Below are positions 2,501 to 51,825 of a stretch of DNA of 64,000 nucleotides, piece after piece (within the stretch, counting starts at the first letter, position 1; the number at the start of each line of letters is the position of its first letter). Both the position numbers and the translations under genes were made by a program. Under the pieces are notes generated by a model that was given only the letters and a program-made list of their open reading frames with translations, ran no database searches and had not been told where the DNA came from. The stretch covers positions 1,184,001 to 1,248,000 of the forward strand of contig CAWBOS010000010.1 of assembly GCA_963790475.1 (NCBI GenBank). The letters run 5' to 3'. The DNA comes from an uncultured delta proteobacterium. GTDB taxonomy: Bacteria > Desulfobacterota > RBG-13-43-22.

Positions 2501-4999
2501 ATGGCAAAAAAGACCACTAACGATAATCCGAAAGTAGGGAAATCCTCTTCCCAAGAACCGCCACCTGACAACCAACCGCTGAAAGCTCTGATTGATCTAT
2601 TTTCCGATTGGTACTGGGAACAGGACCCTGAATTCCGCTTCACACGGTTTGAGGGGAGGAACAGCGATATTTTTATCGACGAAAGTCCTCTCGGCAAACG
2701 GCCCTGGGAAACCGGTCTGGAGATCGAAGGCGGATGGGAGACCTATCGGTTATTGCTCAAAACACACCAACCTTTCCGTGAAATCGTCATGCATCGATCA
2801 TTGCCGAAGGGGACGCGGCGCTATCTCCGCATGAGCGGCCTACCGATCTTTGACGACCGGGGCCGATTCCTGGGTTACCGGGGAATCGCTCAGGACTTTA
2901 CCGAACGTAAACTGGCCGAAGAGGCCCTGATCCAGAGTGAGGAGAGATACCGTTCTATTCTGGATAATACCCGGGAAGGCTATTTTGAGGCTGACCTGGC
3001 CGGTAATTTTACCTTTGTTAACGATGCCGAGTGCCACGATCTTGGCTATACCCGGGAAGAATTGATCGGGATGAACTACAAGCAGTATACCGATGAGACC
3101 GAAGGGAAAAAATTGCTGGAGGTCTCCCTTGGGGTTTTTAGAACCGGGGAACAAATCAATGCCTTTGATGGGGAATTTATCAAGAAAGACGGAACGAAAG
3201 GGTTTAACCAAGTTTCGTTATCTCTGATAAAAAACCAAGAAGGCCAACCCATCGGATTCCGCGGTCTTTCCCGGGACATAACCGAACGCAAGAAAATGGA
3301 GGAGACCATCCGTCAATCGGAGGAGAGATATCGGACCATCATCGAAGAAATGAAAGAATGGTATTTTGAAACCGACCTGTCCGGCAATATCATCTTTTTC
3401 AATGAAATCTTTGCCGATGTCTTGGGATATTCCGAAGGCGCCCTGACCGGGCTGAATTTTCGCTCATTATTCAAAAAGGAAGAATCGGACTCTATCTACG
3501 AAATATTTAATCAGGTCTTTAAAACCGGCCAGCCTTCCAGGAACTTTCCTCATGAGTTTATCCAACCGGATGGCACGATGACCTCGGCCGAATTTTCCAT
3601 ATTTCCTAAACGGGACGGGGACGACCGGATAGTGGGATTTCGTGGGGTAGGACATGACATCACCGAACGCAAAATTGCCGAAAAGCGGATTCAATACCTG
3701 GCCACCCACGATGCCCTGACCGACCTGCCCAACCGCATGATGTTCAGCCAGCTTCTGAACCACACCCTTCAGTCTGCCCGGCGTTTCAAACGACAATTCG
3801 CCGTCTTTTTTATCGACCTGGACCGCTTCAAAGTGATCAATGACACCCTGGGACACGAAGCCGGTGATCAATTGTTGCAGGAGATAGCGAAAACATTTAA
3901 AAGGGTGCTGCGGGAAATCGATGTGATCGCCCGTCTGGGAGGAGATGAGTTCGTTATCCTGATTGAAGAAGTCGACGATTTGACGCAAATTACCGGAGTC
4001 GCCCAAAGGGTTCTTTCCGCTGCCATGAAACCCATGGTTATTATGGGTCAGGAATGCCGGATAACGGCCAGCATCGGCATAAGTGTGTACCCCAAGGACG
4101 CGCAAGACGAACAGACGTTAATGAAGAATGCCGATCTGGCCATGTATCTGGCTAAGGAAGAAGGCAAGAATAATTACCAGTTCTACACCCCCAAAATGAA
4201 GTCCCAATCTTTCGAACGGTTGTCTCTGGAGACCAACCTGCGCCACGCTCTGGAGCGTCAGGAGTTCTATTTACATTATCAAGCCAAGCTGGATTTCAAA
4301 ACCGGGGGCATCACCGGGGTCGAAGCCCTGCTGCGTTGGCAGAACCCGGACCTGGGCAACGTGTCGCCCACCCGATTCATCCCGATGGCCGAAGAGACCG
4401 GTCTGATCGTGCCGATCGGCCGCTGGGTGTTAAAGACCGCCTGTTCCCAAAACGTAGCCTGGCAAAGCCAGGGTCTGGCAACGGTTTGTATGGCGGTAAA
4501 TCTTTCTATACGTCAACTCATGGACGATACTCTGGTCCCGGACATCAGGGCTGTCCTCAAAGAATCCGGTCTGGCCCCGAGTCTGTTGGAACTTGAGATT
4601 ACCGAAAGTATGTTGATGCAAGATCCTGAACGGGTAATTAAAATTCTGACCGAAATTAAAAAAATGGGGGTTCGCCTGGCCATCGACGATTTCGGTACCG
4701 GCTATTCCTCACTCGGCCAACTCAAACGCTTTCCAATCGACACCCTCAAGGTGGATCGATCTTTCATCCGCGACCTCTCCAGAAATTCTGAGGACCGGGG
4801 AATCACCGAAGCGATTATTGCCATGGGCAAGACCCTGAGTCTGACCGTTATCGCCGAAGGGGTGGAAACCGAGGAGCAGGAGGCCTTTTTGCGGTCCCAC
4901 GCCTGCGACGAGATGCAGGGGTATTACTTCAGCAAACCCACTCCGCCTGACCAGTTTGCTGAATTGCTGCGAAAACATGTTCCCCCGCTGGTCAGGTAG
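2501..4999 (+). CDS. 3xPAS/PAC-GGDEF-EAL diguanylate cyclase/phosphodiesterase
   Basis: Three PAS/PAC repeats ending DFTERK/DITERK; ARLGGDEF; VEALLRW; IDDFGTGYSS; LKVDRSF. Confidence 0.96.
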   Translation: MAKKTTNDNPKVGKSSSQEPPPDNQPLKALIDLFSDWYWEQDPEFRFTRFEGRNSDIFIDESPLGKRPWETGLEIEGGWETYRLLLKTHQPFREIVMHRSLPKGTRRYLRMSGLPIFDDRGRFLGYRGIAQDFTERKLAEEALIQSEERYRSILDNTREGYFEADLAGNFTFVNDAECHDLGYTREELIGMNYKQYTDETEGKKLLEVSLGVFRTGEQINAFDGEFIKKDGTKGFNQVSLSLIKNQEGQPIGFRGLSRDITERKKMEETIRQSEERYRTIIEEMKEWYFETDLSGNIIFFNEIFADVLGYSEGALTGLNFRSLFKKEESDSIYEIFNQVFKTGQPSRNFPHEFIQPDGTMTSAEFSIFPKRDGDDRIVGFRGVGHDITERKIAEKRIQYLATHDALTDLPNRMMFSQLLNHTLQSARRFKRQFAVFFIDLDRFKVINDTLGHEAGDQLLQEIAKTFKRVLREIDVIARLGGDEFVILIEEVDDLTQITGVAQRVLSAAMKPMVIMGQECRITASIGISVYPKDAQDEQTLMKNADLAMYLAKEEGKNNYQFYTPKMKSQSFERLSLETNLRHALERQEFYLHYQAKLDFKTGGITGVEALLRWQNPDLGNVSPTRFIPMAEETGLIVPIGRWVLKTACSQNVAWQSQGLATVCMAVNLSIRQLMDDTLVPDIRAVLKESGLAPSLLELEITESMLMQDPERVIKILTEIKKMGVRLAIDDFGTGYSSLGQLKRFPIDTLKVDRSFIRDLSRNSEDRGITEAIIAMGKTLSLTVIAEGVETEEQEAFLRSHACDEMQGYYFSKPTPPDQFAELLRKHVPPLVR

Positions 5000-5064
5000 A
5001 AATTTAACGCTATTCAACTAAAACCTTAACCATGTATTTCAAAAAGCAAGTCAGGAGGATAAAA

Positions 5065-6180
5065 ATGTTAAGAACCAAGCTTACGGATTTACTCGGAATC
5101 AAACACCCCATCATTCAAGCCGGCATGGGCCCCTTCAGCAATAACAACCTTTGCGTCGCCGCCAGCAAGGCCGGGGTGCTGGGATTGCTTTCGACCAGCG
5201 GTATTTTTAACAAAACCCAGCAACCCTGGATCTACAATGCCTTTGTGGAGACCGCTGAAGCTACCATGCATGATGATATGCCTACGGTGCTGGAAAAGGT
5301 ATTAAAACGAACTTATCGTCTGACCAAAGACCAGGGGGGCATTTTCGGTATCAATGTCATGGTATCCGCGGAATTAGTGCCTCTTTCGACAATCCTCATC
5401 GACACGGCCATTAGAGTCGTTAATGAAAACCCGGAGATGAAGAATCATTTCAAAGTGATTTTTACTTCGGCCGGCGACCCCGTTCCCTGGGGGGAAAAAA
5501 TTAAAGGTGCCGGATTCAAATGGCTGCACGTCGTCCCCTCGGTTAAAGGGGCTCTCAGATGCGCTAAAGCCGGGGTAGACTTAATTGTGGCCTCCGGCCA
5601 TGAAGGCGGATTTCATACTTCCTGGGAACCGGTCCATTCCATGACTTTATTGCCCTCCGTGGTCGAGGCCCTGTCAGGAACGAATATCCCGGTGGCCGGC
5701 GCCGGCGGGTTCTGCGACGGAAAAACTTTGGCGGCGGCTCTCGCGTTGGGCGCGGCCGGAGCCCAAATGGGGACCCGATTCCTGGCCACTCAGGAGAGCG
5801 ATTTCCATCCCCTCTGGAAGGAACAGGTTGTAAAAACCCCGGATAGAGGCACGCTGGTGGCCCGCGGCATGGTGGGGCCGGCCCGTTGGCTGAAAACGCC
5901 TTCAAGTTTGGAGCATCAAAGAAATACCCTGGCCAAATCTCCGTCAATCTATCTGGATACACCGGATGACTATAACACCCCTGGAGCCCAGGAACTGGTC
6001 GCCTATGAAACGGAAGGGATCAAGGCCGTGTGTATGGGCGACCGGGAAAAAGCGATGATGGCCGGAGGGGAATGTGCCCAGAGGGTGGAAGATCTGCCTA
6101 AGGTCCAGGATCTGGTTGACCGGATCATGGGGGAAGCAACGGATATCCTTCAAAATGCACCCAAGTTTGTAATCGCCTAA
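5065..6180 (+). CDS. Nitronate monooxygenase/FabK-family FMN oxidoreductase
   Basis: PIIQAGMG, GHEGGFH, AGGFCDG, AQMGTRF motifs; AGGAGG RBS. Confidence 0.9.
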   Translation: MLRTKLTDLLGIKHPIIQAGMGPFSNNNLCVAASKAGVLGLLSTSGIFNKTQQPWIYNAFVETAEATMHDDMPTVLEKVLKRTYRLTKDQGGIFGINVMVSAELVPLSTILIDTAIRVVNENPEMKNHFKVIFTSAGDPVPWGEKIKGAGFKWLHVVPSVKGALRCAKAGVDLIVASGHEGGFHTSWEPVHSMTLLPSVVEALSGTNIPVAGAGGFCDGKTLAAALALGAAGAQMGTRFLATQESDFHPLWKEQVVKTPDRGTLVARGMVGPARWLKTPSSLEHQRNTLAKSPSIYLDTPDDYNTPGAQELVAYETEGIKAVCMGDREKAMMAGGECAQRVEDLPKVQDLVDRIMGEATDILQNAPKFVIA

Positions 6181-8284: not shown

Positions 8285-8866
8285 TCACCGGACCCTCCGA
8301 GGGCGGCGGCGAAAATGAGGTAAGGGCGAGCCAAAAAGAAAGGCCTGATAGATATCTCCGATCGCCTTATCCGCCCCATTCATCGTGCCGACTACTACCA
8401 ACCGGGCCAGACCATCGATAAATTCATCAAATGATTGACGGCCATGAAAATGGTCTTCGTGGATATGTTTATAGATATGATGGGTCCTGAATTCTTCAAA
8501 CGATTCCCGATGAAGCCTGTTCTGCAGAACCTCGTCAAAAGGTTGGGGCCAAAAGTAGACGGCATAGAGGCGTTTCTCCGGCAGGGACCGGTAACGGAGT
8601 AAGGCCCCCTGGATCTCTTCCAGAATTTCATCGACCCCGTTTTCTGCGCCTATGGCCACCCCTTCGGCCAGGTGACGGACAAAGGTTTCATAGCTGTCGA
8701 ATCGATCGGAATAAACCCCTTGATAAATCCCGGAAAAGGCCTTGGCTCCTTGAATGACAGCCTCAAAGGCTTGCTTTAGATCAGTCTTGATGACCCACTT
8801 GTATTCCTCGGGCCAATACCTTTCCGCCGCCGCATCCTCTTCATCGGTGTCCGGCATATCGTGCAT
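8285..8866 (-). CDS. Hypothetical protein made of two tandem ~90-aa repeats
   Basis: WP…F…LA..V..G..NG.D…I..A.L….LP occurs twice. Confidence 0.7.
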   Translation of the reverse strand: MHDMPDTDEEDAAAERYWPEEYKWVIKTDLKQAFEAVIQGAKAFSGIYQGVYSDRFDSYETFVRHLAEGVAIGAENGVDEILEEIQGALLRYRSLPEKRLYAVYFWPQPFDEVLQNRLHRESFEEFRTHHIYKHIHEDHFHGRQSFDEFIDGLARLVVVGTMNGADKAIGDIYQAFLFGSPLPHFRRRPRRVR

Positions 8867-8912: not shown

Positions 8913-9071
8913 TTGATGAGTTCGTAAAAAGTTGTCACCCCGGTAAAAGCCGGGGTCCAGGAAATTACAATCAGTTAATAAGACTGGATTCCGGCTGGAG
9001 TCTATCCCGCACTTGATGCGGGATCGGAATAACTCACAGTGGCTGATTTTTACTTTTTACGAAATTCTCAA
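8913..9071. repeat. MITE-like palindromic intergenic element
   Basis: Outer IR ttgatgagttcgtaaaaagt…actttttacgaaattctcaa around core gtcaccccggtaaaagccggggtccag…ctggattccggc…cggaataac. Confidence 0.75.
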
Positions 9072-9163: not shown

Positions 9164-9922
9164 TCAAGGTCCGCCTTTGACCTTAATCACTTGACCGGAA
9201 ACATAGCCGGATTCATCCGAGGCCAGAAACAAGGCGACGCTGCTTACATCTTCCACCGTTCCCAGTCGCCGCAAAGGAATATGGGCCAGGGCGGCTTTCT
9301 TGAAGTCCTCCAGGAACATCCCCTCAACCTTGATGCTTTCCCTGGTCATCCGGGTCTGAAGAAAGTCCGGGGCGATGCAGTTGACATTGATATTATAGCC
9401 GCCCAGTTCTATAGCCAGGGATTGGGTGAGTCCCATCAAACCGGCATTGGCCGTGCTATAATTGAGGGTGCCGGGTTTTCCCAGTCCGGGAGGAACCGGA
9501 GAGGCAATGACAATGATCTTCCCGTACTTCTTTTCCACCATATATTTCCGAACTGCTTTGGCGCAGTTGAAACAACCTTTCAACGATACGGCAAGAACTT
9601 TGTCCCACTGGGATTCACTCAGCGAGTGAAGGAAGGCGTCCTGCCTTATACCCGCATTCGATACCAGGATATCCACTTTCCCGTAAGCGGCGGCGGCCTT
9701 GCTGAAGAGGGCCTCCATCGCTTCCGGATCGGTTACGTCGCCCTGGAAAGGGATGGCCCTCATTCCCCTTTCCTTTATCTTTTCGGTGACACTCTCCGCG
9801 GCCATCAGGCTGAGGTCATTGGCCACTACATCGGCGCCTTCCACCGCAAACCTTAAAGCGATCGCCCGTCCGATATCACCGGCGGCCCCGGTAATGACGG
9901 CCACTTTACCTTCGAGTCTCAT
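9164..9922 (-). CDS. Short-chain dehydrogenase/reductase, FabG-like, atypical YxxxN motif
   Basis: TGAAGDIG, SNAGI, NYSTAN, NCIAP, IPLRRLG. Confidence 0.9.
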   Translation of the reverse strand: MRLEGKVAVITGAAGDIGRAIALRFAVEGADVVANDLSLMAAESVTEKIKERGMRAIPFQGDVTDPEAMEALFSKAAAAYGKVDILVSNAGIRQDAFLHSLSESQWDKVLAVSLKGCFNCAKAVRKYMVEKKYGKIIVIASPVPPGLGKPGTLNYSTANAGLMGLTQSLAIELGGYNINVNCIAPDFLQTRMTRESIKVEGMFLEDFKKAALAHIPLRRLGTVEDVSSVALFLASDESGYVSGQVIKVKGGP

Positions 9923-10602
9923 GCCTCCTCCCGAAAATCTTTCTGCCATCGATCGTCCACTGCGGAAAACCGTCTTTGCTTAATTTGATTAATGAGGTCC
10001 CGCTCACCTTCGATTTTTTCTTCAAAAATAGTATAACAAGCCCCCACGCCCAGGATGGCATGGGCGTCACTTCCCCCTGTCCCGGGAAGATGAAGATGAT
10101 GGGCAACCGCTTTGGTAAATGAAGTTTCTTTTAATCCGGCACGCCCGTTATAGATCTCCAGGGCGTCGACTATTTCAAATACCGCGCGGTTCCTGATAGT
10201 GTTTATTCCCCTGGGGATAATTTCATTTGAATCGGATTCCGAAAGGTCAAAGGTGCTATAGAGTTCAGGCTCAGTTCGGAAAGGATGGGCCATGATCATG
10301 ACCCCATCGGCTTCATCGACCATCGTTTTTAAGGAAACAGCACTGTAAACCTGCAGGACAGGCCGATGCAGGCCGAAAACCAGTATCTCGCCCAGGTCGG
10401 TGCTGACTTCCACCCCGCCGATGACCAGGAAGTCGTGTTTTTCCCGGAGACGATCAATCGCTTCCTTTTCCCATAATTGATTGTGCTCCGTGATGCAGAC
10501 CCCATCAAGCCCCGTGAGTTTGGCCCGCTGAATAAGCTGATCCGGATCCATATAGGCACACGCCGATCCGTAGAGGGTGTGGAGATGGAGATCGATTTTC
10601 AT
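9919..10602 (-). CDS. PHP-domain metallohydrolase
   Basis: DLHLHT, CITEHN, GVEVS, AHPFR, GGSDAH. Confidence 0.92.
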   Translation of the reverse strand: MKIDLHLHTLYGSACAYMDPDQLIQRAKLTGLDGVCITEHNQLWEKEAIDRLREKHDFLVIGGVEVSTDLGEILVFGLHRPVLQVYSAVSLKTMVDEADGVMIMAHPFRTEPELYSTFDLSESDSNEIIPRGINTIRNRAVFEIVDALEIYNGRAGLKETSFTKAVAHHLHLPGTGGSDAHAILGVGACYTIFEEKIEGERDLINQIKQRRFSAVDDRWQKDFREEA

Positions 10603-10639
10603 TCTTTAGAACAGCCTGTCAATACGATAGCTTTTCAGA

Positions 10640-11221
10640 TCAGGCCCTTTTGGCCTCAAACTGACAGTAGCCCTCTTTGGGAATGGCGGCCGTCATGCTG
10701 ATTAAGGCGTCAATCTCCAGATCCTCATGTATGGTCCGGCAGGCGGTCAGGCAGGCATGTTTACAGGCTAGAAGGCCGGCGACCTCTTCCCCGCATTTTT
10801 CCTTTATTTTATTAAAGGTTTTACAATTTAACATGCGGTAGATCAATCGTTCATGATTGTTTTCCACAATAGGCAGAATCGAAATCTCTTGGGTACTAAG
10901 ATAGGCTATCTCGATAAACCGCTGGGGGACCAAGGCAAATTTCAGGTATCCATTCGTTTTATCCACCGCTTCGAGAAGAACTTCATAGGTCCGGTCGGGA
11001 TATTGGTCTCCAAGTTTATGGGTCTTTTTCATCCAGTCCCGGCCATAAGATTCAAAGAGTTCCTTTCCTATGGTCTCAATCTCCGATTCGGTTTTCCCCT
11101 TGACGGCCTCGGCAAAGCGGGCGGCCAGCTTATCCACCTCAAATTCCTGGCCCAGGAGGTGGAGCATTTCCGGGTTGAGTTCAAAGGAATAGTGTTTTAT
11201 GTCATATTGTAAATCAGTCAT
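10640..11221 (-). CDS. Hypothetical protein, probable V4R/ATC-hydrolase-like fold with Cys cluster
   Basis: Start re-called at MTDLQ behind GGAGG; NC…C…LACKHAC…GYCQF C-terminus resembles V4R-type domains. Confidence 0.6.
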   Translation of the reverse strand: MTDLQYDIKHYSFELNPEMLHLLGQEFEVDKLAARFAEAVKGKTESEIETIGKELFESYGRDWMKKTHKLGDQYPDRTYEVLLEAVDKTNGYLKFALVPQRFIEIAYLSTQEISILPIVENNHERLIYRMLNCKTFNKIKEKCGEEVAGLLACKHACLTACRTIHEDLEIDALISMTAAIPKEGYCQFEAKRA

Positions 11222-11232
11222 GATCCCTCCAA

Positions 11233-11505
11233 TTAGACCTTCTGGGTCCCGGGAAAAGTAATGGTCAAGGCATCCACGGGACAAAGTTCGATGCAAAGAT
11301 TACAGCCGGTACATTTGTCCCGAAAAGGGGCGAACACCATATAATTCCCCGGCTCTTTAGGATTGGTCTCCCGGCCTCTTTCCACCTTCAAAGCGGCCAC
11401 CTGGAACACCGATTGGGGACACCCCTGGAGGCAAAGTTTACAATCAAAGGGGGTGGTGCATTTCGTCGAATCAATCTTTATCATCGCAAAATTAGGAGCC
11501 GCCAT
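11233..11505 (-). CDS. 2x[4Fe-4S] ferredoxin
   Basis: CTTPFDCKLCLQGCP and CTGCNLCIELCP. Confidence 0.92.
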   Translation of the reverse strand: MAAPNFAMIKIDSTKCTTPFDCKLCLQGCPQSVFQVAALKVERGRETNPKEPGNYMVFAPFRDKCTGCNLCIELCPVDALTITFPGTQKV

Positions 11506-11506
11506 T

Positions 11507-12358
11507 TTACCAAACCTCCTTTAAACCGGGAAGACTGGTTCGATCAATCAGAGAAATCGCCTTTCTGGGACAGGCCGTCTCGCAAAGTCCGCACCCAAAA
11601 CATTTCATCTGATCAATATTCGTTTTTTCCATGGTGACCTCAAATTTGATGGCCCCGAACTGACAGCGTTGGACGCAGATTCCGCAGCCGTTACAAAGGT
11701 CATAGTCCATAAGGGCCACGGAGTGGCTTTTGAGACAGCCGGTCGTGATCCCGTAATCAACCCGGTTTCTAATCATTCCACAGTCCGGATAATCGCAATT
11801 ACAGATGCCGCCGACATAGGATCCCCCGAAGGTCATCAGGATATGGACCATCCCCTTTTTGTTCCATTTGACCAACCACTCCTTGGCCTCATCAGGGGTC
11901 ATAAAATTAACGCCCCCCTTATATCTTTCCGGCCACCGTTCCCATTTAAACATCCCCACTCCCAGACCGGTGCAGGAATATTCATGTTCATTTCTTTCTT
12001 CATGGGCCCGAGAGTGAATCCGGCAGATACAGGACATGGAGGTCACCGGGTAAGACATCTCAACCGCCTTGAAGGCCTCCTGAATAGGAATGACCTGACC
12101 GATCTGGAAGGGACCTTTCTCCCTCATATCATTGGCCTCTTTGATCAACTGTTGAAATTTTACCGGATCCTCAAAACGGAGGTTCATGATTTCCCGGATG
12201 GTCCTTCCGGATTGGGCCTCAGGGTCAGAGCCGTAGGCCGCATCCTTTTGTCCCGGTTTTTTTATTTTATACATCTGCCGGGAATGGTTCTTGGGATTAA
12301 GGTACCATTTCCCACCCCCAAACTCCGGATCACCATAAGCGTCGCAAACCCAACACAT
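11507..12358 (-). CDS. Cys-rich 4Fe-4S-binding protein
   Basis: MCWVC N-terminus, SCICR…C, ICNCDYPDC and two C-terminal CxxCxxCxxxC motifs; AGGAG RBS. Confidence 0.88.
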   Translation of the reverse strand: MCWVCDAYGDPEFGGGKWYLNPKNHSRQMYKIKKPGQKDAAYGSDPEAQSGRTIREIMNLRFEDPVKFQQLIKEANDMREKGPFQIGQVIPIQEAFKAVEMSYPVTSMSCICRIHSRAHEERNEHEYSCTGLGVGMFKWERWPERYKGGVNFMTPDEAKEWLVKWNKKGMVHILMTFGGSYVGGICNCDYPDCGMIRNRVDYGITTGCLKSHSVALMDYDLCNGCGICVQRCQFGAIKFEVTMEKTNIDQMKCFGCGLCETACPRKAISLIDRTSLPGLKEVW

Positions 12359-12390
12359 AAATTTTTTCTCCTCTATTTTTAGAATTATAG

Positions 12391-12540
12391 GTTCAAAGTT
12401 CAAAGTTCAAAGTTCGAGGTCTCAGGTCTCAGGTTTAAGGTTTAAGGTTTAAGGTTTGAAATTTACAATTTGCAATTTGACTTTTCTTGCCCAAGGTTTA
12501 AGGTAAAATCCTTACACCGTAAACCGTGTACCTTATACCG
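12391..12540. repeat. Degenerate heptamer tandem array with partial inverted copy
   Basis: gttcaaa x3, ggtctca x2, ggtttaa x3, aatttac/aatttgc; later ccttacaccgtaaaccgtgtaccttataccg. Confidence 0.75.
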
Positions 12541-12548
12541 GTCTTTTC

Positions 12549-14114
12549 TTACAACAGTCGGGTACTGGTTTCAAAACAAAGTTGGCCCCGGTCAAAGATA
12601 CAATTACCACACATCCGGCAATTTAGACAGCGTTTGGCCTCCTCAATGACCTGCCATTCCGTATATCCTAAATCGGTTTCCTGAAAGGAACGCGTGGCGT
12701 CGCTGTTGGAGAGGGAAGGCATGTTCCAGCGGTCTTTTCTAACCAGGAAGGAAGGGATAACGGTCTCTTCCCCAAGTTTAAACACTTCCTGTGTCTTTTT
12801 CTTCGGTTTCGATTTGAGCTCTTTTCCTCTCAGATATTGATCGATAGAACGGGCCGCCCGATGCCCGGCGGCAATCGCTCCGACAATCGTACCCGGCATG
12901 GCCGCCGCATCTCCGGCGGCAAAAACACCCTTAAGGTTAGTGGCCATAGTCTCCGGATCGATTTTAAAGGTTCCGCCTTTATTCAGATCGACCCCTTGGA
13001 TAAAAGAAGGGTCAGGGACCTGCCCGATGGCCACAATCACCAGGTCCGCTTTCAGGGCTGCTTCACTCCCCGGGCCGGATTCAAGTTCCCAACTGAGCTG
13101 CCCATCCACCCCCCTGTTCATGCTGGCAACCTTGGTAAAGGCCACTCGCTGCGCTTTCCCACCCACTCTGGCGATGATCTTTTGCGGTGCCAGGGAAGGG
13201 AGTATTTCAACCCCCTCTTCTTCGGCCTTTTCGATTTCCCAGGCGAAGGCCGGCATATCGGCCCTGGATTCCAGACAGGCCAGGGTTACCTTTTCCGCTC
13301 CTAAGCGCAATGCGGTCCGGGCGGCATCCACGGCCACGTTCCCGCCGCCGATGATGACCACCTGCCCCTTGATATGACGCTTATCTCCCAGCTTGACCTC
13401 CCGCAGGAAATGGAGGGCCTGAACGACACCCTTCAGATCAATGCCGGGTATGTTCAGTTCAGCGCTTTTCCAGGCCCCGGTGGCCAGAAGGACGGCCTTG
13501 TATCCCTGATTCCAAATATCTTCAAGAGTAAACTCTTTCCCGATACGCATATTCGTTTTAATGTCAACCCCCAGGGCCCTGATATAATCCACTTCGAATT
13601 TTACCACAGGTTTGGGTAGATTAAAATCCGGTATCCCGGCAGCCAGCATCCCACCGGCCACGGGAAGGGCTTCAAAAACACTCACTCCGTAACCGGTTTG
13701 GGCCAGGTCGTGAGCGGCGGTCAAACCCGCGGGGCCCGATCCGATGATCGCCATCCGTTCTTTGGTTCCGCGTTGGGTTCGCGGCTTCTTATGGCCATTA
13801 CCTTGTTCCACCTGGCCGATGAATCTTTTCAGCCATTCAATGGCAATAGGCCGGTCAACGAGCGACCGGGTGCAGGCCTCCTCACAAGGATGATGACAGA
13901 CCCGGCCGCAGATGGAAGGAAATGGATTGGTCTGTCGCACAATAGCCATGGCTTCCTTGAATTTACCCTGGGAAAGGGCAATGACATAGCTCGGGATGTC
14001 CATATGAATGGGGCAGGCCTCTTCACAAGGAGACAGTTTATCCACCATAGGCCAGCATTTTTCCCCATGAACCCGGGAAAGGTTCAGGCTAACTTTTTTC
14101 CGTCCGTGTCCCAC
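12549..14114 (-). CDS. GltD/SudA/DsrL-like FAD/NAD(P)-dependent Fe-S oxidoreductase
   Basis: PCEEACP…NPFPSICGRVC..PCE..C; IIGSGPAG; IIGGGNVAVD; FAAGD; EAKRCLNCRMCGNC; GTG start. Confidence 0.9.
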   Translation of the reverse strand: MGHGRKKVSLNLSRVHGEKCWPMVDKLSPCEEACPIHMDIPSYVIALSQGKFKEAMAIVRQTNPFPSICGRVCHHPCEEACTRSLVDRPIAIEWLKRFIGQVEQGNGHKKPRTQRGTKERMAIIGSGPAGLTAAHDLAQTGYGVSVFEALPVAGGMLAAGIPDFNLPKPVVKFEVDYIRALGVDIKTNMRIGKEFTLEDIWNQGYKAVLLATGAWKSAELNIPGIDLKGVVQALHFLREVKLGDKRHIKGQVVIIGGGNVAVDAARTALRLGAEKVTLACLESRADMPAFAWEIEKAEEEGVEILPSLAPQKIIARVGGKAQRVAFTKVASMNRGVDGQLSWELESGPGSEAALKADLVIVAIGQVPDPSFIQGVDLNKGGTFKIDPETMATNLKGVFAAGDAAAMPGTIVGAIAAGHRAARSIDQYLRGKELKSKPKKKTQEVFKLGEETVIPSFLVRKDRWNMPSLSNSDATRSFQETDLGYTEWQVIEEAKRCLNCRMCGNCIFDRGQLCFETSTRLL

Positions 14115-14364
14115 GTTGCTTTTCTCCTTAATAAATAATCCCCATCAGAATATTTAATGAATTTTGGTGACCGAGAATCTCACCTTTGGATAAACCTGAT
14201 CAGATCCGAATCAAGATCTCAGAATAAAAGGAGGGTCTATTAATTCAGGGTCCTTATATAGTCATTATTTTATCAACTTTCTTTTTAGACTGTCAAGCCC
14301 AAAAAAATGCATATTGAACTTGCCCTTCTCTTCATTTCTTTGTATTATAATCATCTGGTGCGGA

Positions 14365-15012
14365 ATGTTCAAGATTGATTTGCATGTTCATACTGTTTTC
14401 GGTGGTGACTCTATTATCAAACCGCAGGAGTTAGTTTCTCGTTCCCGACAAGTGGGTTTGGATGCGGTCTGTGTAACGGAACACCATTCTTACTTTCTTA
14501 GCGATCCTTACAAAAAAATTGCTCTGGAAACGGGCTTTCCTATCTTTCAAGGCCTGGAATACCGCGCTCATGAAGGGCATCTGTTGGTTTTCGGACTGAA
14601 AGTCGAACAAGAAGATCTTCCCCCAAGACTGCCGATGCAATGGACCCTGGATTGGGTTCATGGGCGGGGAGGCGTCGCTATCCCGGCCCACCCTTTTCAA
14701 AAATGGGACTCCAACGGCTTTCCCGGGAATCGGATCCATCAATTAAATAATCTTTTCGCCCTGGAAGCCCTGAATGCCAGCCTGTCATCTCAAGAAAATC
14801 ATTTGGCCGCCAAAGCGGCCACCGACCTGAATATTCATAGTATCGGGGGGTCGGACGCCCACGGGCCATCGGTTCTGGGCCGGGCCTATACCCTGTTTCC
14901 GGCCCCGATCACAACTGAGGAAGAACTGGTTCAGGCCTTACGCAACGGTGGATATATCCCCTGTTGGAACGATAATTTTTACAAGGCTGAACATTTAGAC
15001 CATTGGATGTGA
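14365..15012 (+). CDS. PHP-domain metallohydrolase (paralog of 9919-10602)
   Basis: DLHVHT, CVTEHH, GLEY, AHPF, GGSDAH. Confidence 0.9.
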   Translation: MFKIDLHVHTVFGGDSIIKPQELVSRSRQVGLDAVCVTEHHSYFLSDPYKKIALETGFPIFQGLEYRAHEGHLLVFGLKVEQEDLPPRLPMQWTLDWVHGRGGVAIPAHPFQKWDSNGFPGNRIHQLNNLFALEALNASLSSQENHLAAKAATDLNIHSIGGSDAHGPSVLGRAYTLFPAPITTEEELVQALRNGGYIPCWNDNFYKAEHLDHWM

Positions 15013-15035
15013 ATTTTCCCAATAATGGAGAACCC

Positions 15036-16346
15036 TTGAAAAAAAATTTGTTCTTATTAATGGTTTTTGTTTTTTCTTTAACCTTGGGATCAGCTCAGGC
15101 CGCAGCTCCGAATCAACCGGTTTCCGATCCCTTAAGCGGGGCCAGTCTATATGAAACCGTAATGAAATATTCTGAATTTGAAAATCATCAGACCGGAAAT
15201 AAAGGTGATGTCGCCACCTCGAACTGGATTATGGATGAATTGAAAAAGGCCGGTCTGAAAACGGAATTGAAACCATGGAAGCTGCGTCAGTTTTTCCTAA
15301 AAGACTGTGAATTGAAAGTGGATGGTAACCGTTTCGAGAGTTTTCCCGGGTGGCATCCCAATACTCATCCGGTCAAAGGCCCGCTGGCCCTCTTCGACCC
15401 TTCCAATACCGGCAATTTGAAGGGTCATATTGCCTTTGCCGGTCTCAAATACGGTGCGGTTTCCAATACCGGTATGCTTAAAATAGTGGAAAAGGTCCGC
15501 GAGGCCGGGGCCATCGGCCTTATCGTCGCCTGTAAAAATTTCGGCGACTCCGGTATGTTGACAGCCGCCAATGCGGAGAAAAAAGGCCAGGGACCGGAAT
15601 ATTATCAGACCCCGTTGCCTCTACCCGCCGTGGTCGTTGCCGGTGATGATGAAACCCAATTGACCGAGGCCGCTTCGGCCGGAAAAAAAGCGTCAATAAA
15701 GATTACCGGTGTTTCCAAAAAAAACGTGACTGCCTACAATGTGGTCGGTACGCTTAAAAGAGGGGATCAATGGGTCATCATTACCACACCGTCGTCCGGG
15801 TGGTTCCAATGCAGCGGCGAGAGGGGGCCGGGGGTGGCCCTTTTCCTGGGATTGGCCCGATGGACGGCGAAAACGGATTCCAAATACAGTTACATTTTCA
15901 TCGCCAACTCCGGTCACGAGATGGCCTACATGGGGGCTCATTATGTTCCGGCTGAATATCTGCCCGAAAATAAAATCACCAAGGAAAACGTCGCCTGCTG
16001 GTTCCACCTGGGCGCGGCCATCGCTTGCCGGGCCTGGAAAAAGAGGGACATCCTCTACGAACCGCTTAACGAACCCAATAAGGTCTGCTATCTGACTGCC
16101 GTCCCCGGATTGCTCGATTTGGTGAAAGCATCCTTCGGCGAGGTCAAAGGACTGACCATAGGCAGCGGCACTTATGCCGGCGAATTACTCAATATCGTCA
16201 AAGACGGGTATAATGCCTGCGGTTTTTTTGGGTCCAATTATTTTTTCCACACCCGACAGGATAATGACAATGAAACCAGTCCCGCGCTGTTGGACCCGGT
16301 GGGAAAAGGGATGGTCAATTTTTTCAAAACCCTCGAGAAACGCTGA
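15036..16346 (+). CDS. Exported PA-domain/M28-peptidase-like protein
   Basis: Signal peptide LKKNLFLL…AQA; H.TG, GAIG, NVVG, SGHE, FHT..D architecture; TTG start behind GGAG. Confidence 0.6.
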   Translation: MKKNLFLLMVFVFSLTLGSAQAAAPNQPVSDPLSGASLYETVMKYSEFENHQTGNKGDVATSNWIMDELKKAGLKTELKPWKLRQFFLKDCELKVDGNRFESFPGWHPNTHPVKGPLALFDPSNTGNLKGHIAFAGLKYGAVSNTGMLKIVEKVREAGAIGLIVACKNFGDSGMLTAANAEKKGQGPEYYQTPLPLPAVVVAGDDETQLTEAASAGKKASIKITGVSKKNVTAYNVVGTLKRGDQWVIITTPSSGWFQCSGERGPGVALFLGLARWTAKTDSKYSYIFIANSGHEMAYMGAHYVPAEYLPENKITKENVACWFHLGAAIACRAWKKRDILYEPLNEPNKVCYLTAVPGLLDLVKASFGEVKGLTIGSGTYAGELLNIVKDGYNACGFFGSNYFFHTRQDNDNETSPALLDPVGKGMVNFFKTLEKR

Positions 16347-18528: not shown

Positions 18529-18792
18529 ATGAATCCAGAAACCATCAGTATCGCCGAGGCCAAAAAAACTTTCTCCGAACTCTTAGGGAAAGTGGCCTAC
18601 GGGAAAAAAAAGATTATGATCACTAAAAGGGGGAAACCAATGGCCTTGTTGTCTCCGCCGGAAAATATCGATTCCCCACTCTTCGAATTCAAGGGTTGGC
18701 TCAACGAATCGGATCCCTTCTTTTCCTCCATTGATCGAATCGTTCAAGAACGGGCCGAACACAAGCCAAGGGTCTCAAAAAGGAAAAAATAG
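18529..18792 (+). CDS. Phd/YefM-family antitoxin
   Basis: ISIAEAKKTFSELL…ITKRGKPMA. Confidence 0.9.
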   Translation: MNPETISIAEAKKTFSELLGKVAYGKKKIMITKRGKPMALLSPPENIDSPLFEFKGWLNESDPFFSSIDRIVQERAEHKPRVSKRKK

Positions 18793-18797
18793 TTCGA

Positions 18798-19205
18798 ATG
18801 TTTCTGCTGGACACCAATATCCTTAGTGAATTAGTTAAGAAGAAACCCAACCCGTATTTGCTTTCCCGTTTATCGTCCCTTCCGATCCATACCCTTTTCA
18901 CCTCGATTATTTGCCTCATGGAATTACGATATGGAAGTGCCCTGCGGGCCGATTTTGATTCCTTTTGGTCGAAAATTGTGGGACAAGTTATTTTCCAGGT
19001 TCAGGTTATTTCATTGGGTCCGGAAGAAGGATTAATAGCGGGAGACCTACTTGCCCGGTTGAGAAGGAAGGGCCAATCGATCGGGTTGGAAGATATCCTG
19101 ATTTCGTCCACAGCCATTGCTCACAATCTTGTTTTAGTGACAGCAAATATAAAGCACTTTTCAAAAATTGATGGATTGACCGTTGAAAACTGGTTAGTTG
19201 TTTAA
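18798..19205 (+). CDS. vapC: VapC PIN-domain toxin
   Basis: FLLDTNILSE, E.RYG, D.LI..TA, LVTAN..HF. Confidence 0.93.
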   Translation: MFLLDTNILSELVKKKPNPYLLSRLSSLPIHTLFTSIICLMELRYGSALRADFDSFWSKIVGQVIFQVQVISLGPEEGLIAGDLLARLRRKGQSIGLEDILISSTAIAHNLVLVTANIKHFSKIDGLTVENWLVV

Positions 19206-19276
19206 TCTGAAGAAACAAGAAATACTTTATTACGTTAGTTTGACCCTATTTACGATTTTTATTCCATAAGGTTAGA

Positions 19277-19307
19277 AACTTGAGGTCGCAAATTGTGACC
19301 TCAAGTT
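19277..19307. repeat. 31-bp near-perfect palindrome
   Basis: aacttgaggtcgcaaattgtgacctcaagtt. Confidence 0.8.
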
Positions 19308-19535
19308 CATTCAATTGAGTCGGAACCCGCTTTAACGAGGTTGAGGATTTTGCTGAGGGACGGGGGACAGAAAACAGAGTGCAAAGAAAATGAACCTGCC
19401 CCCCGGCCTAAGCATCTGGAGTTTTGTGTACATTTAAGATTTGAATATACCGGTTGAAGAAACCACCCTGTCCAGATGGTTGGTGTCAACCATTCCGGGC
19501 AGGGGTTCCAATGGTTCCGTTCAGGATCCAATCAG

Positions 19536-20306
19536 CTAATTTTTCTTTCGGCAATCAATGCCATATACCTCTCGCATGGATTTGTCCTGATTGGCATCAA
19601 GGTATTGGATTTCAATAGTGTAGGAATCATGGACAATGCGATCAAGGATGGCATCAGCCAGAGTGGTTTCTGAGATTTTCTTGTGCCAGCCCGCCGGGGC
19701 AAACTGGGAACAAAAAATGGTGGATGCGTTTTTATGGCGGGAGTGAATGATTTCCAATAGATCTCTGGCCTCGGTTTCGGTTAAGGAAACCAGCATCCAT
19801 TCATCCAGGATCAGGAGGCTGTACTTTTTATACTGGTTGATACTCTTCTTGAAGCTTCCTTCTCCCCTGGCAACGGCCAGCTCGGCCAGCAATTCCGGAA
19901 GACGGATGTATTTCACGGTGTAGTGGCGTTTACAGGCTTCCATGCCGAAGGCGCAGGCAATGTACGATTTTCCCGCGCCTGTGGCACCAAGAACAATGAT
20001 GTTATGCTTCTCGGTTATGTATTCACAGCTGGAGAGACGCTCAATCAGGTTTTTGTTGAGCTTTCTGCCGGAATGGTAATTAATTTCTGCGATGCAGGCT
20101 CCCGGCTGGTCAAAGGAGGCATTTTTAATCAGCCGGTGCAGGCGGTTGTTTTTGCGGTTGGTATATTCTATGTCCACCAGCATCCCAAGCCGTTCCTCGA
20201 AGGAAAAGCCCTGCAGGGAACTGTCCTGCAACTGGGTACGGAAGGCATGGGCCATGGCGGGTAGGCGCATTTCAATTAATTTGTTGATAGTGGTTATATT
20301 AGTCAT
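19536..20306 (-). CDS. istB: IS21 helper ATPase IstB
   Basis: GATGAGKS, LLILDEW, AILDRIVH. Confidence 0.95.
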   Translation of the reverse strand: MTNITTINKLIEMRLPAMAHAFRTQLQDSSLQGFSFEERLGMLVDIEYTNRKNNRLHRLIKNASFDQPGACIAEINYHSGRKLNKNLIERLSSCEYITEKHNIIVLGATGAGKSYIACAFGMEACKRHYTVKYIRLPELLAELAVARGEGSFKKSINQYKKYSLLILDEWMLVSLTETEARDLLEIIHSRHKNASTIFCSQFAPAGWHKKISETTLADAILDRIVHDSYTIEIQYLDANQDKSMREVYGIDCRKKN

Positions 20307-20310
20307 GACC

Positions 20311-21855
20311 TTACCTCCCATAGTAGCCGGCGCCGCGGGTGAAACCATATTCAGCTAAGGCAGAGGATCTTTCTGGCTGTTTGGACCGTTCATCCGTTAG
20401 CTTGTCTTGGCCGGTGGCCAAAATGTTTTTGATGCTCTTATAGCTCGGATGAGGGGTATAGGATAACGCCCTTTTACAGGCCGCTTCCAGGCGCTCCACG
20501 GAATATCGGTCTGCCAGCTTTAAAAGGCCCATACAGCTTTTATAACCCTGCTGTTCCACCCGGTAGGAGGCCAGTATCGATTTAATGGTGATTACGGAAT
20601 GAACGCCGATTTTTTCGGCCCAGGCTATAAAGCGGTCTCTGTCCCATTTCAGGTATTTCTGGTGGTCTTCCGGCATATGGGTCTCAATGGTACTGTATTG
20701 GCCGGGACGTCCATAAAGGCGTTTATGGGAACAGATACGGGTGTTATGGTACAAGACCTCGATGACGTTGCGGGTTGACCGCACATCGACCTTCTGTTTG
20801 ATATATTCGTAAGGAACGGAGTATTGCATCTTGTCTACGGATATATGATAATTGAACTGGACGGTGGCCTGCTTCCAGGTCGCTCGTTCATAGAAGGTAG
20901 CCGGTAACGGGGCCATAAATGGCTTTTCTTCCTCAAAGAAAATACGGTATCGGCTGCCTTCTTTCTTTTGGAAAGGGTGACGGTTATAGGCCTCCAGCTT
21001 GGAGCGGATTTCCCGGTTCAGTTCCTCTAAGGAGAAAAACTTTTCATGGCGAAGAGCCGCGGTAATCCAGGTGGATACGGCCCTTACCGAGCCTTCTACA
21101 TTCGGCTTGTCCTTGGGTCTCCTGACGCGTGCCGGAATCACGGCGGTGCCGTAGTGTTCCGCCATTTCATGGTAGGTTTTGTTGATTATTGGCGTGTACC
21201 AGTCACTGCGGTCCACCCCGGTTTTCAAGTTGTCGGGCACCAGCATGCGTGTTACACCGCCAAAGAATTGATACAGGTTGACATGGGCTGTAATCCAACT
21301 GTCCATGTCCTGTGAAAAGAAGGCTTCTACATAGGCGTATAGGCTGTAGGAAAGAACACCCACGAAAAGGTAGGCAGGAATAATTTCCCCGGTGTCCCGG
21401 TCAACTACACAGGCGGGGTCCCCGGCCCAGTCTACCTCAATCTGGTCTCCCGGTTTCCTCGGGATGTGCATGGTGGCGCGCTTCTTTTCGGAATGCTTTT
21501 GAAAATGAAAACAGAACTGGGAATACATGAGAGGCAGCTCATTACCTTGTCTGCATGCCTCACAGTATTCATTCCAGAGAAGCTTTAAGGTCACGCCATT
21601 CCGCATCATTTCCCTGGCAATGTAGTCATAATCAGGATATTTACGGGATGGTTCCGGTGCTGATTTCTCTGGAAAAAACTGTTCCTCCAGTTCAGCATCC
21701 GTGATTTCGGCCTTTAACGGCCATACCAGGTCCAGCTCTTTGGCACGGTTAAGAACCTTTCGGACCGTTGCCCTGGCGCACTCACAGCTTCCGGCAATAC
21801 TGGTTTGATTAATCCCCAGACTCTGTAGCCGAAGGATTTCTCGGTATTTGGTCAT
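20311..21855 (-). CDS. istA: IS21 transposase IstA
   Basis: PGDQIEVDWAG, VPDNLKTGV, PARVRRPKDK..VE. Confidence 0.95.
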   Translation of the reverse strand: MTKYREILRLQSLGINQTSIAGSCECARATVRKVLNRAKELDLVWPLKAEITDAELEEQFFPEKSAPEPSRKYPDYDYIAREMMRNGVTLKLLWNEYCEACRQGNELPLMYSQFCFHFQKHSEKKRATMHIPRKPGDQIEVDWAGDPACVVDRDTGEIIPAYLFVGVLSYSLYAYVEAFFSQDMDSWITAHVNLYQFFGGVTRMLVPDNLKTGVDRSDWYTPIINKTYHEMAEHYGTAVIPARVRRPKDKPNVEGSVRAVSTWITAALRHEKFFSLEELNREIRSKLEAYNRHPFQKKEGSRYRIFFEEEKPFMAPLPATFYERATWKQATVQFNYHISVDKMQYSVPYEYIKQKVDVRSTRNVIEVLYHNTRICSHKRLYGRPGQYSTIETHMPEDHQKYLKWDRDRFIAWAEKIGVHSVITIKSILASYRVEQQGYKSCMGLLKLADRYSVERLEAACKRALSYTPHPSYKSIKNILATGQDKLTDERSKQPERSSALAEYGFTRGAGYYGR

Positions 21856-22219
21856 AAAGATGACCTCCTTTAAAATGAATTTACACCGATTCTCGATGTA
21901 TGAACCCATTATAAAGGAGGGTAAAGGAATTGGCACAAGCCCGGAATGATTGAGACCTTTAACCGGAACGGTTGGAACGGAACTCCGGATTCATTGGGAA
22001 AAGTGGCCCGGAATATTCAAGATTTGACCCTAAATGCTCTACCTAAATGCTCTATGATATGCAGAAGGATTGAAAAAGACTTTGAAGAAGACTTTCAGGA
22101 GATAACTAATAATGATTTAATAGGGATATTGTGTGGGGAGATGCCTTCGGGCAATTAAATCAAGATAAATTGCCATTAACTTTTACTTTGAAGACTCCCT
22201 TACTTTGTGAAGATATACA

Positions 22220-22246
22220 GAAAAACTTTAGAATAATTTGTTAACC
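22220..22246 (+). other. Putative attI-like crossover site (G|TTAACC)
   Basis: AT-rich tttagaataatttGTTAACC; GTTAACC exactly complements the R'' (GGTTAAC) of the first cassette's attC. Confidence 0.5.
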
Positions 22247-22261
22247 TTGGTAAATATAATA

Positions 22262-22720
22262 ATGATAGAACCTATTGGTATCATACATACGCCCTACGCG
22301 AGAAAAGAGGAATGCCCTATACAACCGCTTTATTCAGCGGATTCGCTCGGTCGCGTCGAGGTATTTGAAAAGTATGAGGCGGGACTGAAGGATATTGAGA
22401 CCTTTTCTCATATTTATCTACTGTATTTGTTTGACCGGGCGGGCAAGATAGAGATGGTGCGTGCAACATTTCTTGACGATGAATCGCACGGCATTTATGC
22501 TTCAAGACATCCGTGTAGGCCGAACGGGTTAGGGCTGTCAGTTGTAAGATTGCTACGACGCGAACAAAACGTCCTAATAGTCGAAGGCGTCGACATGCTG
22601 GACAAATCATCGCTCTTAGATATAAAGCCTTACATCCCGAAGTACGACGCCATTGCTTCTGCATCCGATGGGTGGACTACCGATAAGAAATGGCGTTCCA
22701 AGCCCGAGGGAAGAGAATGA
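22262..22720 (+). CDS. tsaA: TsaA/TrmO-family SAM-dependent tRNA methyltransferase (cassette 1)
   Basis: PIGIIHTPY…CPIQ, FSHIYLLY, GIYASRHPCRPNGLGLS, DMLD…LLDIKPY. Confidence 0.88.
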   Translation: MIEPIGIIHTPYARKEECPIQPLYSADSLGRVEVFEKYEAGLKDIETFSHIYLLYLFDRAGKIEMVRATFLDDESHGIYASRHPCRPNGLGLSVVRLLRREQNVLIVEGVDMLDKSSLLDIKPYIPKYDAIASASDGWTTDKKWRSKPEGRE

Positions 22721-22728
22721 CTAAAAGA

Positions 22729-22791
22729 GGTTAACCATGCCATGCACCCGATCGCGCAAACGGCGCGCTCCGGGTGATGGCCGTGTTAGTC
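22729..22791 (+). other. attC site (63 bp)
   Basis: GGTTAAC…gccatGcacccg…gcgc-aaacg-gcgc…cgggtgatggc…GTTAGTC with extrahelical G. Confidence 0.88.
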
Positions 22792-23195
22792 ATTAGAGGA
22801 GAAAGATGAATCGCGACTACCTCCTTGATAGTCTGGATGGTCTGAAAGGGCTCGTATTCCGGTTGTTACCCGCGGATGTTGTCGCATTGATTGGCTGCGT
22901 TCCAATGACAACCGATGGGCCATGGAGCGATGAAGAGAAGACTGTCTTTGAGACGGTGATAGGAATCCCAAAAGAGCGAGTCTACTGGACGCCTGGAGGA
23001 TTCAAGAACGTACCTTCTGCGGCTGATCGGGATGAGCGTTCAAGGTGGGTCCATGCAGTTGCAGCCATCAAACAAAGGTATTTATTTCTCGATCCAGACA
23101 CAGGCTTCTATACACACCATACCGGGGTATCCGAAAAGATGGTCCTCGTTAGTGAACTCAAAGATATGCTTCGTGGACCGGAGGCGCTGATTATA

Positions 23196-31341: not shown

Positions 31342-31363
31342 TTTGCCGCTCCGGACATCGGTC

Positions 31364-31400
31364 ATTCAATGACCTCCGCTTCTATTGGAGGTCATTGAAT
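31364..31400 (+). terminator. Hairpin downstream of FAD oxidoreductase
   Basis: attcaatgacctcc…ggaggtcattgaat. Confidence 0.55.
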
Positions 31401-31520
31401 CGGCTTCTATCCTTTCCCTTTCTCCCGGCCAGGAATTCAACCAGCAAACAGTAATAATTAACTGATGATTTATTTGTTTTCCTAAATCTCAGTGCGCAAA
31501 ATATGTAAAACAAATTTCCC

Positions 31521-31549
31521 TTGACAGGGTTGAATCACCTTAATACTAT
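31521..31549 (+). promoter_or_regulatory. Sigma70 promoter of ABC operon 1
   Basis: TTGACA-17 bp-TACTAT. Confidence 0.5.
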
Positions 31550-31648
31550 CTTCTCATCAGCAGAACATTTTTTTATCTTTTCAGCACTCGTTAATGACCA
31601 AAGAAGAAGGGCCAACCCACACACCAACATAATTAAACAGGAGGTTTT

Positions 31649-32902: not shown

Positions 32903-32929
32903 GAACTAAGCAAGGTATTTCAAATTCTG

Positions 32930-32963
32930 AAACGGTCAAAGAAGGTCTTCCCTTTGGCCGTTT
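32930..32963 (+). terminator. Intercistronic hairpin after SBP gene
   Basis: aaacggtcaaag…ctttggccgttt. Confidence 0.5.
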
Positions 32964-33015
32964 ATAAAAATTAGAGATGAAATCTCAGATTTATGATGAA
33001 AGAATCTAAAAGCCC

Positions 33016-33879: not shown

Positions 33880-33880
33880 G

Positions 33881-36313: not shown

Positions 36314-36315
36314 CA

Positions 36316-51813: not shown

Positions 51814-51825
51814 GCAGGAACAAAG

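Follow-up and report, generated by a model that had tools for sequence, protein, structure and literature searches.

What might an operon do that combines a GltD-like flavoprotein, two iron-sulfur proteins, a V4R-like protein, a PHP-family metalloprotein, and an atypical short-chain dehydrogenase/reductase (SDR)? The question is raised by a 64,000-nucleotide stretch of an uncultured delta proteobacterium (assembly GCA_963790475.1, contig CAWBOS010000010.1, positions 1,184,001 to 1,248,000), hereafter the window, which carries such an operon on its minus strand. We favor a split, NADH-linked oxidoreductase that resembles IsrA, a putative isoprene reductase, and that includes a V4R subunit and a dedicated module for metal insertion; we assign this reading a probability of roughly 0.45.

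In the order of transcription, the operon encodes a 521-residue GltD/NfnB-family FAD-NAD(P)H subunit with a Fer4_20 Fe-S domain (12549..14114); FeS283, a 283-residue protein with an N-terminal Cys6 domain and a C-terminal 2x[4Fe-4S] domain (11507..12358); a 90-residue 2x[4Fe-4S] ferredoxin whose first motif is atypical (11233..11505); V4R193, a 193-residue protein with a V4R/H-NOX fold and four invariant cysteines (10640..11221); PHP1, a PHP-family metalloprotein of 227 residues (9919..10602); a FabG-like SDR of 252 residues without the catalytic Lys (9164..9922); and h193, a 193-residue protein of no family with an internal duplication and a Met-His start (8285..8866). The original prediction, made from the sequence alone, described the first six of these genes together with a divergently transcribed PHP gene, PHP2 (14365..15012, plus strand). 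All seven were confirmed at these coordinates, and the operon gained h193, which had been overlooked. The gaps between the first six genes measure 190, 1, 11, 37, and −4 bp, so that the last five of them overlap or lie less than 40 bp apart, as had been described. The same prediction noted that a Mo/W or hydrogenase catalytic subunit is missing, and a Pfam scan of 56 window proteins likewise revealed none.

A single scan of GTDB genomes with a V4R193 alignment gave 47 pattern matches, of which 33 were confirmed, in 31 loci; V4R193 is present in all of these by construction, and the relatives within reach were those with two exact motifs. FeS283 was found in 27 loci (27 of 27 untruncated ones) and the ferredoxin in 29, with every miss within 144 bp of a contig end. 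FeS283-ferredoxin-V4R is thus the conserved core, present in every untruncated locus and ranging from Desulfobacterota and Dehalococcoidia to Helarchaeota and Hadarchaeota. The other genes occur less often among the 31 loci: GltD in 18, the SDR in 17, h193 in 16, PHP1 in 11, a CooC-like ATPase in 8, and PHP2 in 1. The complete seven-gene set occupies 8 loci, from Deltaproteobacteria-type metagenome-assembled genomes (MAGs), a Hydrogenedentota bin, and bins labeled Pseudomonadales and Nitrospirales. A variant without PHP1, in which the ATPase follows h193, is found in seven Dehalococcoidia loci (six complete, one truncated), and the three-gene core stands by itself in Chloroflexota, Helarchaeota, and one truncated Hadarchaeota contig. 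The h193 gene follows the SDR gene in 16 of 17 SDR loci, the 17th ending at its contig end, and the gap is 2 to 28 bp in 12 of the 16. Pairwise identities of the operon genes are correlated across loci (rho 0.52 to 0.81), a pattern that shared ancestry also yields. Close protein relatives, as named by source, are mostly Thermodesulfobacteriota/Deltaproteobacteria MAG proteins. The plasmid collection, searched with the FeS283 N-domain, returned no match, and a literature search for which most subscription journals were outside coverage returned no description of this gene set.

These comparisons also change the outline of the system. Two PHP genes had been thought to bracket it; PHP1 is instead the fifth of seven genes, and of the 16 loci in which a GltD gene has over 1.6 kb of sequence upstream, only L001, the closest relative, also carries PHP2. 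PHP2 does belong to the PHP family, but it shares just 28% identity with PHP1, its supposed paralogue, and lies outside the conserved system.

We propose FeS283 as the catalytic subunit. Its predicted structure is confident (mean predicted local distance difference test score, pLDDT, 90.1), and its N-terminal domain contains six cysteines, C110, C112, C129, C186, C188, and C193, that include two CxC motifs at a spacing of 76. The six occur without exception in each of the 24 locus sequences compared. The family comprises 327 clusters at 50% identity, and among the 106 full-length proteins in the best 150 of these 327 distant representatives (44 shorter or fragmentary matches were removed) each of the six is retained in 105 to 106. 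This supports the earlier suggestion of a conserved, undescribed soluble oxidoreductase with a non-canonical Cys site as its candidate active site. From this pattern we lean slightly toward catalysis taking place at the Cys6 site; that the site may hold nickel, by analogy with IsrA, is a more tentative proposal.

The same family shows variation around the six positions. Two further cysteines, C2 and C5, are retained in 94 to 96 of the 106 distant relatives and substituted in 13 of 120 close relatives in which the six persist; the FeS283 N-termini of L005, L006, L007, and L008, which form one subgroup, have Asn/Asp there. Fusion of FeS283 to the ferredoxin occurs in 4 of the 106 full-length relatives. 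Because motif 139-146 is present in just 7 of the 106, FeS283 with a V4R partner seems to form a subfamily. Sequence and profile searches of the PDB with the N-domain gave no real relative; in these and the parallel searches with h193 and V4R193, a match to a PPR protein was set aside, since it adds up eight repeats of 3.6 bits each. Fold searches with the whole FeS283 model matched only within residues 210-283, the ferredoxin domain, and since this domain filled the results, the N-domain (1-210) is not shown to be a new fold.

Irregular copies of the core genes were also seen. The ferredoxin-V4R pair is duplicated in tandem in L004 (3200-5880), FeS283 is present twice in tandem in L007 (7960-9713), and the entire trio is duplicated, with divergent copies, in L031 (6867-10537), which suggests paralogues for different substrates. 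FeS283 is apparently broken in L015 (5301-6042), by a frameshift or an assembly error. In L030 (6974-8143), a longer-type 389-residue protein with Cys6 and 2x[4Fe-4S] domains divergently adjoins the FeS283-ferredoxin-V4R trio, so that this archaeal locus has two Cys6 proteins.

The Cys6 domain connects the operon to a system already in the literature. In the passages of Kronen et al. (2023; PMC10134865) that deal with it, IsrA of the Acetobacterium wieringae isr operon is a putative isoprene reductase, a 901-residue GltD-type protein of clade 9 with a Cys6 site that includes two CxC motifs (C180-C182 and C254-C256), encoded together with HypA/HypB. The same passages propose Cys6 as a substrate-proximal Ni site, place HypA near 73% of 988 homologues, and state that the "ferredoxin" encoded in the isr operon also has the Cys6 domain (PMC10134865). 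We made the comparison through a surrogate, L032, from the plasmid collection (Subdoligranulum variabile record), in which the gene order is HypB, a 925-residue oxidoreductase, HypA, and DUF5692; its neighborhood and domain order are those that these passages give for IsrA clade 9, and the CxC spacing is 74 in both. All six FeS283 cysteines align to the Cys6 region of the 925-residue protein. The FeS283 N-domain profile scored 47.8 bits on this region, compared with 8.8 for the best of those scored among 2000 shuffles and 0.4 for the reversed sequence, and a narrow FeS283 profile scored 27.9 bits on L032, compared with at most 10.7 for shuffles. A reverse search from L032 recovered 161 FeS283-family proteins and, among 511 proteins, zero V4R or h193 proteins. 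By computation, then, the Cys6 domain of FeS283 is shown to be homologous to the IsrA-type Cys6 domain, and the claim that the system is without precedent is not supported.

V4R193 is recognizable by fold. It has no Pfam match, a Pfam scan of 117 family members gave noise alone, and PDB sequence and profile searches found no real relative. Its predicted structure matches the sensory domain of DmpR/PoxR (Z 11.7, root-mean-square deviation 3.3 to 3.4 Å over 157 to 158 residues; for 6IY8, Z 11.7 and 3.3 Å over 157 aligned residues), which upholds the original V4R-like assignment. Its four invariant cysteines (133, 153, 157, and 186) presumably coordinate zinc at a structural site, a feature also of DmpR. 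Feature-based look-alikes are named ATC hydrolase (scores 0.95 and 0.90), and in L019 the operon is closely preceded by a gene of the ATC hydrolase family (4678-5229). OrpR was considered as a relevant system and set aside, as its sensor in the part of PMC8359166 that describes it is PAS rather than V4R.

The earlier note had listed V4R193 among possible maturation or substrate-processing factors; modeling instead supports V4R193 binding FeS283 as a subunit. In a three-chain model with four clusters, V4R193 scored 0.80 and the best of three controls 0.00. Of solved pairs, 116 of 157 reach the mark for such scores, as do 2 of 215 mismatched pairs; the mark applies only roughly to this model, which had its own alignments and ligand present. 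Model runs share at least 89% of contacts, with partner pLDDT of at least 89. The predicted interface joins residues 22-34 and 134-141 of FeS283 to V4R residues that fall mainly in 77-123; it involves the most conserved motifs of both proteins, and Tyr30 of FeS283 is among its best-defined contacts.

The 521-residue flavoprotein is the proposed point of electron entry or exit, and we infer that it joins the complex. Its PDB matches are 9BOV_A (E 6.8e-110), 9N5U, 8OH5_C, and NfnB 4YLF_B, and it falls under every NCBIfam cut-off (best model 446.6 bits vs. 516; TIGR01316 351.8 vs. 471.75). Of the 19 GltD rows that cover the site of the YRR motif, 18 have CLE instead and 1 has CLD, which we take to suggest a preference for NAD(H); CLE is common to the operon protein and L032, and a third protein, L033, has YRR. 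Conserved C-terminal cysteines (C496, C499, C502, C505, and C513; window 12549-12650) and a conserved N-terminal His/Cys (window 14040-14070) may possibly provide an additional metal site. In L019 (6035-7614) the gene is split in three pieces, by frameshifts or assembly errors. No NfnA/NfnS, GltB, or Dsr partner genes were found in the window or in the scanned neighbors.

The remaining genes resemble a metal-insertion module, and the roles that we give to h193, PHP, and SDR are inferred from the following. The h193 family (476 clusters at 90%) is internally duplicated and has no PDB relative, no usable Atlas match, and no Pfam family. A Met-His start is present in 112 of the 120 relatives listed, Thr7, Asp11, Glu15, and Trp18 are invariant, and acidic residues lie by the N-terminus. 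HypA binds Ni through His2, according to the relevant passage of PMC10134865. By this analogy h193 is a candidate metal (Ni) chaperone, although HypA has a HypA domain with two CxxC motifs and h193 shares the Met-His start alone. All 16 h193 loci carry exactly one of PHP1 (9 loci) or the CooC-type ATPase (7 loci), and never both. The best PDB match of the ATPase is CooC itself (3KJE, E 4.4e-17), and CxC is present in 8 of 8.

PHP1 scores above the Pfam cut-offs for PHP and PHP_C and retains the HxH, TxH, and SDxH motifs in 12 of 12 rows, two of the ligand positions having Cys or Glu/Asp as variants; we take these motifs to be metal ligands. Given its swap with the CooC-type ATPase, PHP1 may plausibly be a maturation factor; PHP2 lies outside the system. 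The SDR is atypical, as had been noted. In 17 sequences, the window's included, the position of the catalytic Lys is N (13), S (3), or G (1), with Tyr kept in 17 of 17 and Ser in 15 of 17, so the Ser-Tyr-Lys triad (YxxxK) is incomplete and the protein is probably a pseudo-enzyme or an NAD(H)-binding accessory. In L023 (11302-11988), a DUF6775/DUF7001 probable metallopeptidase follows PHP1, and SDR and h193 are absent there.

Under the reading that we favor, NADH would reduce the FAD of the GltD-like subunit, and electrons would pass through its Fe-S clusters to the ferredoxin, then to the two clusters of FeS283, and on to the Cys6 metal site as the catalytic center. This site would probably hold an Fe-S cluster that contains Ni or is otherwise non-cubane. 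V4R193, docked on FeS283, would shape substrate access. For metal loading, h193 would act as the carrier, the CooC ATPase or PHP1 as the insertase, and the inactive SDR as a binding partner. Its chemistry would most likely be reduction of C=C bonds (or the reverse) in conjugated, isoprenoid, or acyl-CoA substrates, in the setting of anaerobic degradation of organic matter.

A C=C substrate is a possibility that we hold with some doubt, and the genes around the 31 loci fit it weakly. We scanned 240 neighbor open reading frames (ORFs) of at least 110 residues, apart from the core genes, several window families already identified, and apparent antisense shadows; ORFs were picked greedily, and some genes may have been lost. 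Acyl-CoA dehydrogenases lie near 7 loci and enoyl-CoA hydratases near 7. Phytoene-desaturase-like flavoproteins, under family cut-offs, lie near 4 (the core-only archaeal L029-L031 and L028), old yellow enzymes near 2, 2-oxoacid:ferredoxin oxidoreductases near 3, and an aldehyde:ferredoxin oxidoreductase near 1.

Several observations weigh against our reading. The Cys6 homology is remote (28% over 170 residues) and runs through L032 rather than the IsrA sequence itself, and the gathering of the six cysteines at one site is presumed. IsrA is a candidate identified by proteomics, whose nickel and Cys6 cluster are hypotheses in PMC10134865, and a 2026 preprint (10.64898/2026.02.25.708027) still treats IsrA as uncharacterised. 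In a comparison of scores with three outgroups, the operon GltD scored higher on L033, an unrelated protein of 1195 residues, than on L032 in 14 of 16 cases. GltD is absent from 8 loci that have room upstream for it or another gene. No h193 gene was found in 15 of the 31 loci, a group that contains truncated loci and every archaeal one, so the core can occur without the accessory module beside it. The h193 protein has almost no Cys (0.39 per sequence), no Pfam match to HypA, and no BLAST match to the HypA of L032. The PHP/CooC split tracks lineage and so represents few independent events. Finally, the neighbor counts are raw, and beta-oxidation genes are numerous in the window itself.

Other explanations were weighed as well. 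A non-catalytic module for electron transfer or redox/ligand sensing, which passes electrons to an enzyme encoded elsewhere, is somewhat unlikely; in it, the eight N-domain cysteines would form two ordinary Fe-S or Zn sites and V4R193 would sense a small molecule. C2 and C5, kept in most distant relatives, do bring the count to eight, sufficient for two four-Cys sites, and the nearest V4R folds are phenol-sensor domains. Cys6 and ferredoxin domains also occur in stand-alone proteins without a flavoprotein (the 389-residue protein of L030, and L035) and, by the passage of PMC10134865 cited above, in the isr operon "ferredoxin." However, the six cysteines persist where C2/C5 are substituted, a simple electron conduit would hardly be expected to have a CooC/h193 module of its own, and a Pfam scan found no DNA-binding or signaling domain in the operon genes. 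We regard as unlikely a catalytic site without nickel, either a [4Fe-4S] cluster with a redox-active disulfide, as in a disulfide/thiol reductase like ferredoxin:thioredoxin reductase, or a double-cubane or P-cluster-like site assembled by the ATPase. Kronen et al. point to CxC motifs in ferredoxin:thioredoxin reductase and to a resemblance to P-type and double-cubane clusters (PMC10134865), and many loci have no adjacent Ni-type accessory gene; nevertheless, the ATPase is CooC-like with CxC, HypA/HypB flank the IsrA-type homologue in L032, and no thioredoxin-like gene recurs beside the operon.

Two further alternatives carry little weight. A BzdV/KGOR-like NAD(P)H:ferredoxin oxidoreductase that feeds an ATP-dependent aryl-CoA reductase in aromatic degradation is very improbable. 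PMC5658619 mentions BzdV as a putative NADPH:ferredoxin oxidoreductase beside the ferredoxin BzdM; 3 of the 31 loci have a 2-oxoacid:ferredoxin oxidoreductase nearby, and phenols are ligands of the V4R fold in DmpR/PoxR. Against this, no aryl-CoA reductase subunit was found in the 240 neighbor ORFs or the 56 window proteins, and the invariant core is FeS283-ferredoxin-V4R, with GltD not included; identity with the bzd cluster, known here from passing literature mentions, was rejected, as none of the loci has reductase genes nearby. That unrelated genes are clustered here by chance is refuted: PHP2 alone behaves that way, while the gene order recurs across phyla, with 8 loci for the seven-gene set and 6 for the CooC variant, which answers the co-occurrence question that the original prediction posed. 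In the other direction, we consider it rather unlikely that FeS283-V4R is a new Ni-Fe-S enzyme class that reduces poorly activated C=C bonds, with maturation by h193 and CooC/PHP. The substrates of such a class would be isoprenoids, dienes, and possibly aromatic rings, and its hosts Dehalococcoidia, Desulfobacterota, and Asgard archaea of deep sediments; h193 would be a new nickel-chaperone family, and PHP would be repurposed as a metal insertase.

Regulatory and other features of the window are as follows. A candidate sigma-70-like promoter (14267..14296, minus strand) lies about 150 bp ahead of the first gene, with 11 of 12 consensus bases and an extended −10; it is the best of 11 sites, with 7.5 expected in shuffles, and is a consensus match alone. 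The terminator scan (8 sites vs. 9.7 expected) was uninformative. The GltD-FeS283 spacer contains head-to-tail repeats of 6 to 7 bases (window 12395-12500). The SDR-h193 gap of 297 bp in the window is probably due to a stretch bounded by inverted repeats (8913..9071), of which a related 72-bp piece sits elsewhere in L001. Two ORFs, 15003-16346 (447 residues, signal-peptide-like start) and 1625-2320 (231 residues), have no Pfam/NCBIfam match. A lower-GC region at 18529-24676 contains an IS21-type element (19536-21936), a DDE transposase (23231-24676), and a toxin-antitoxin pair of the Phd/PIN type. The stretches 29908-38122 and 49577-63918 hold three ABC transporter sets of the branched-chain type together with CoA ligases, an SDR, a beta-keto acid cleavage enzyme, and a protein with a metallo-beta-lactamase fold; we read these regions as organic-acid degradation islands. 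A gene for a cytochrome c554-type multiheme protein lies at 41806-43161.

The interest of the operon is that it places the Cys6 domain of IsrA, a hypothesized new metallocluster site, in a large stand-alone family, whose 283-residue subunit would be simpler to produce and to examine spectroscopically than a 900-residue fusion. It also associates the Cys6 site with another, independent group of accessory genes of nickel type (CooC and the Met-His protein), which makes the nickel question testable, and it gives a role to two unannotated families, V4R193 and h193, in abundant uncultured sediment organisms.

Compared with known systems, each part of the operon has a relative from which it differs. 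The flavoprotein matches the NfnB/GltD/DsrL/StnC/NfnABC modules in sequence, but the operon has no NfnA/NfnS, GltB, or Dsr partner, and its subunit has CLE for YRR and, in place of a complete ferredoxin domain, a short run of C-terminal cysteines. V4R193 shares the fold of V4R/XylR-N domains (DmpR, PoxR), but it stands alone, at 10% identity and without a Pfam match; unlike in these domains and ATC-hydrolase-like proteins, its conserved motifs form the predicted FeS283 interface. The ATPases of related loci share the P-loop and CxC of the CooC/AcsF nickel-insertion ATPases, but they are not beside carbon monoxide dehydrogenase/acetyl-CoA synthase genes, and the window operon has PHP1 instead. 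The best PDB match of PHP1, PsfC (7RTY, E 3.6e-6), is weak and local; PsfC performs oxidative di-iron chemistry. The closest likeness is to IsrA: a Cys6 site with two CxC motifs 74 to 76 apart (compared on L032) followed by ferredoxin-type clusters, a GltD-type FAD/NADH module with CLE, and Ni-insertion-type genes nearby. In contrast to the single chain of about 900 residues in IsrA, the operon is split into three or four genes (521, 283, and 90 residues separate), adds the V4R subunit and the N-terminal C2/C5 of FeS283, has a GltD part that mostly scores higher on L033 than on the IsrA-type L032, and is known from Desulfobacterota, Dehalococcoidia, and archaea. Its loci have h193 plus CooC or PHP plus the inactive SDR in place of HypA/HypB; no HypA or CobW/HypB family member was found in the scanned neighbors, where a short HypA in an ORF under 110 residues could escape. 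Because neither the single-chain fusion nor the hypA/hypB context was found, the operon system probably works like IsrA without being a member of clade 9.

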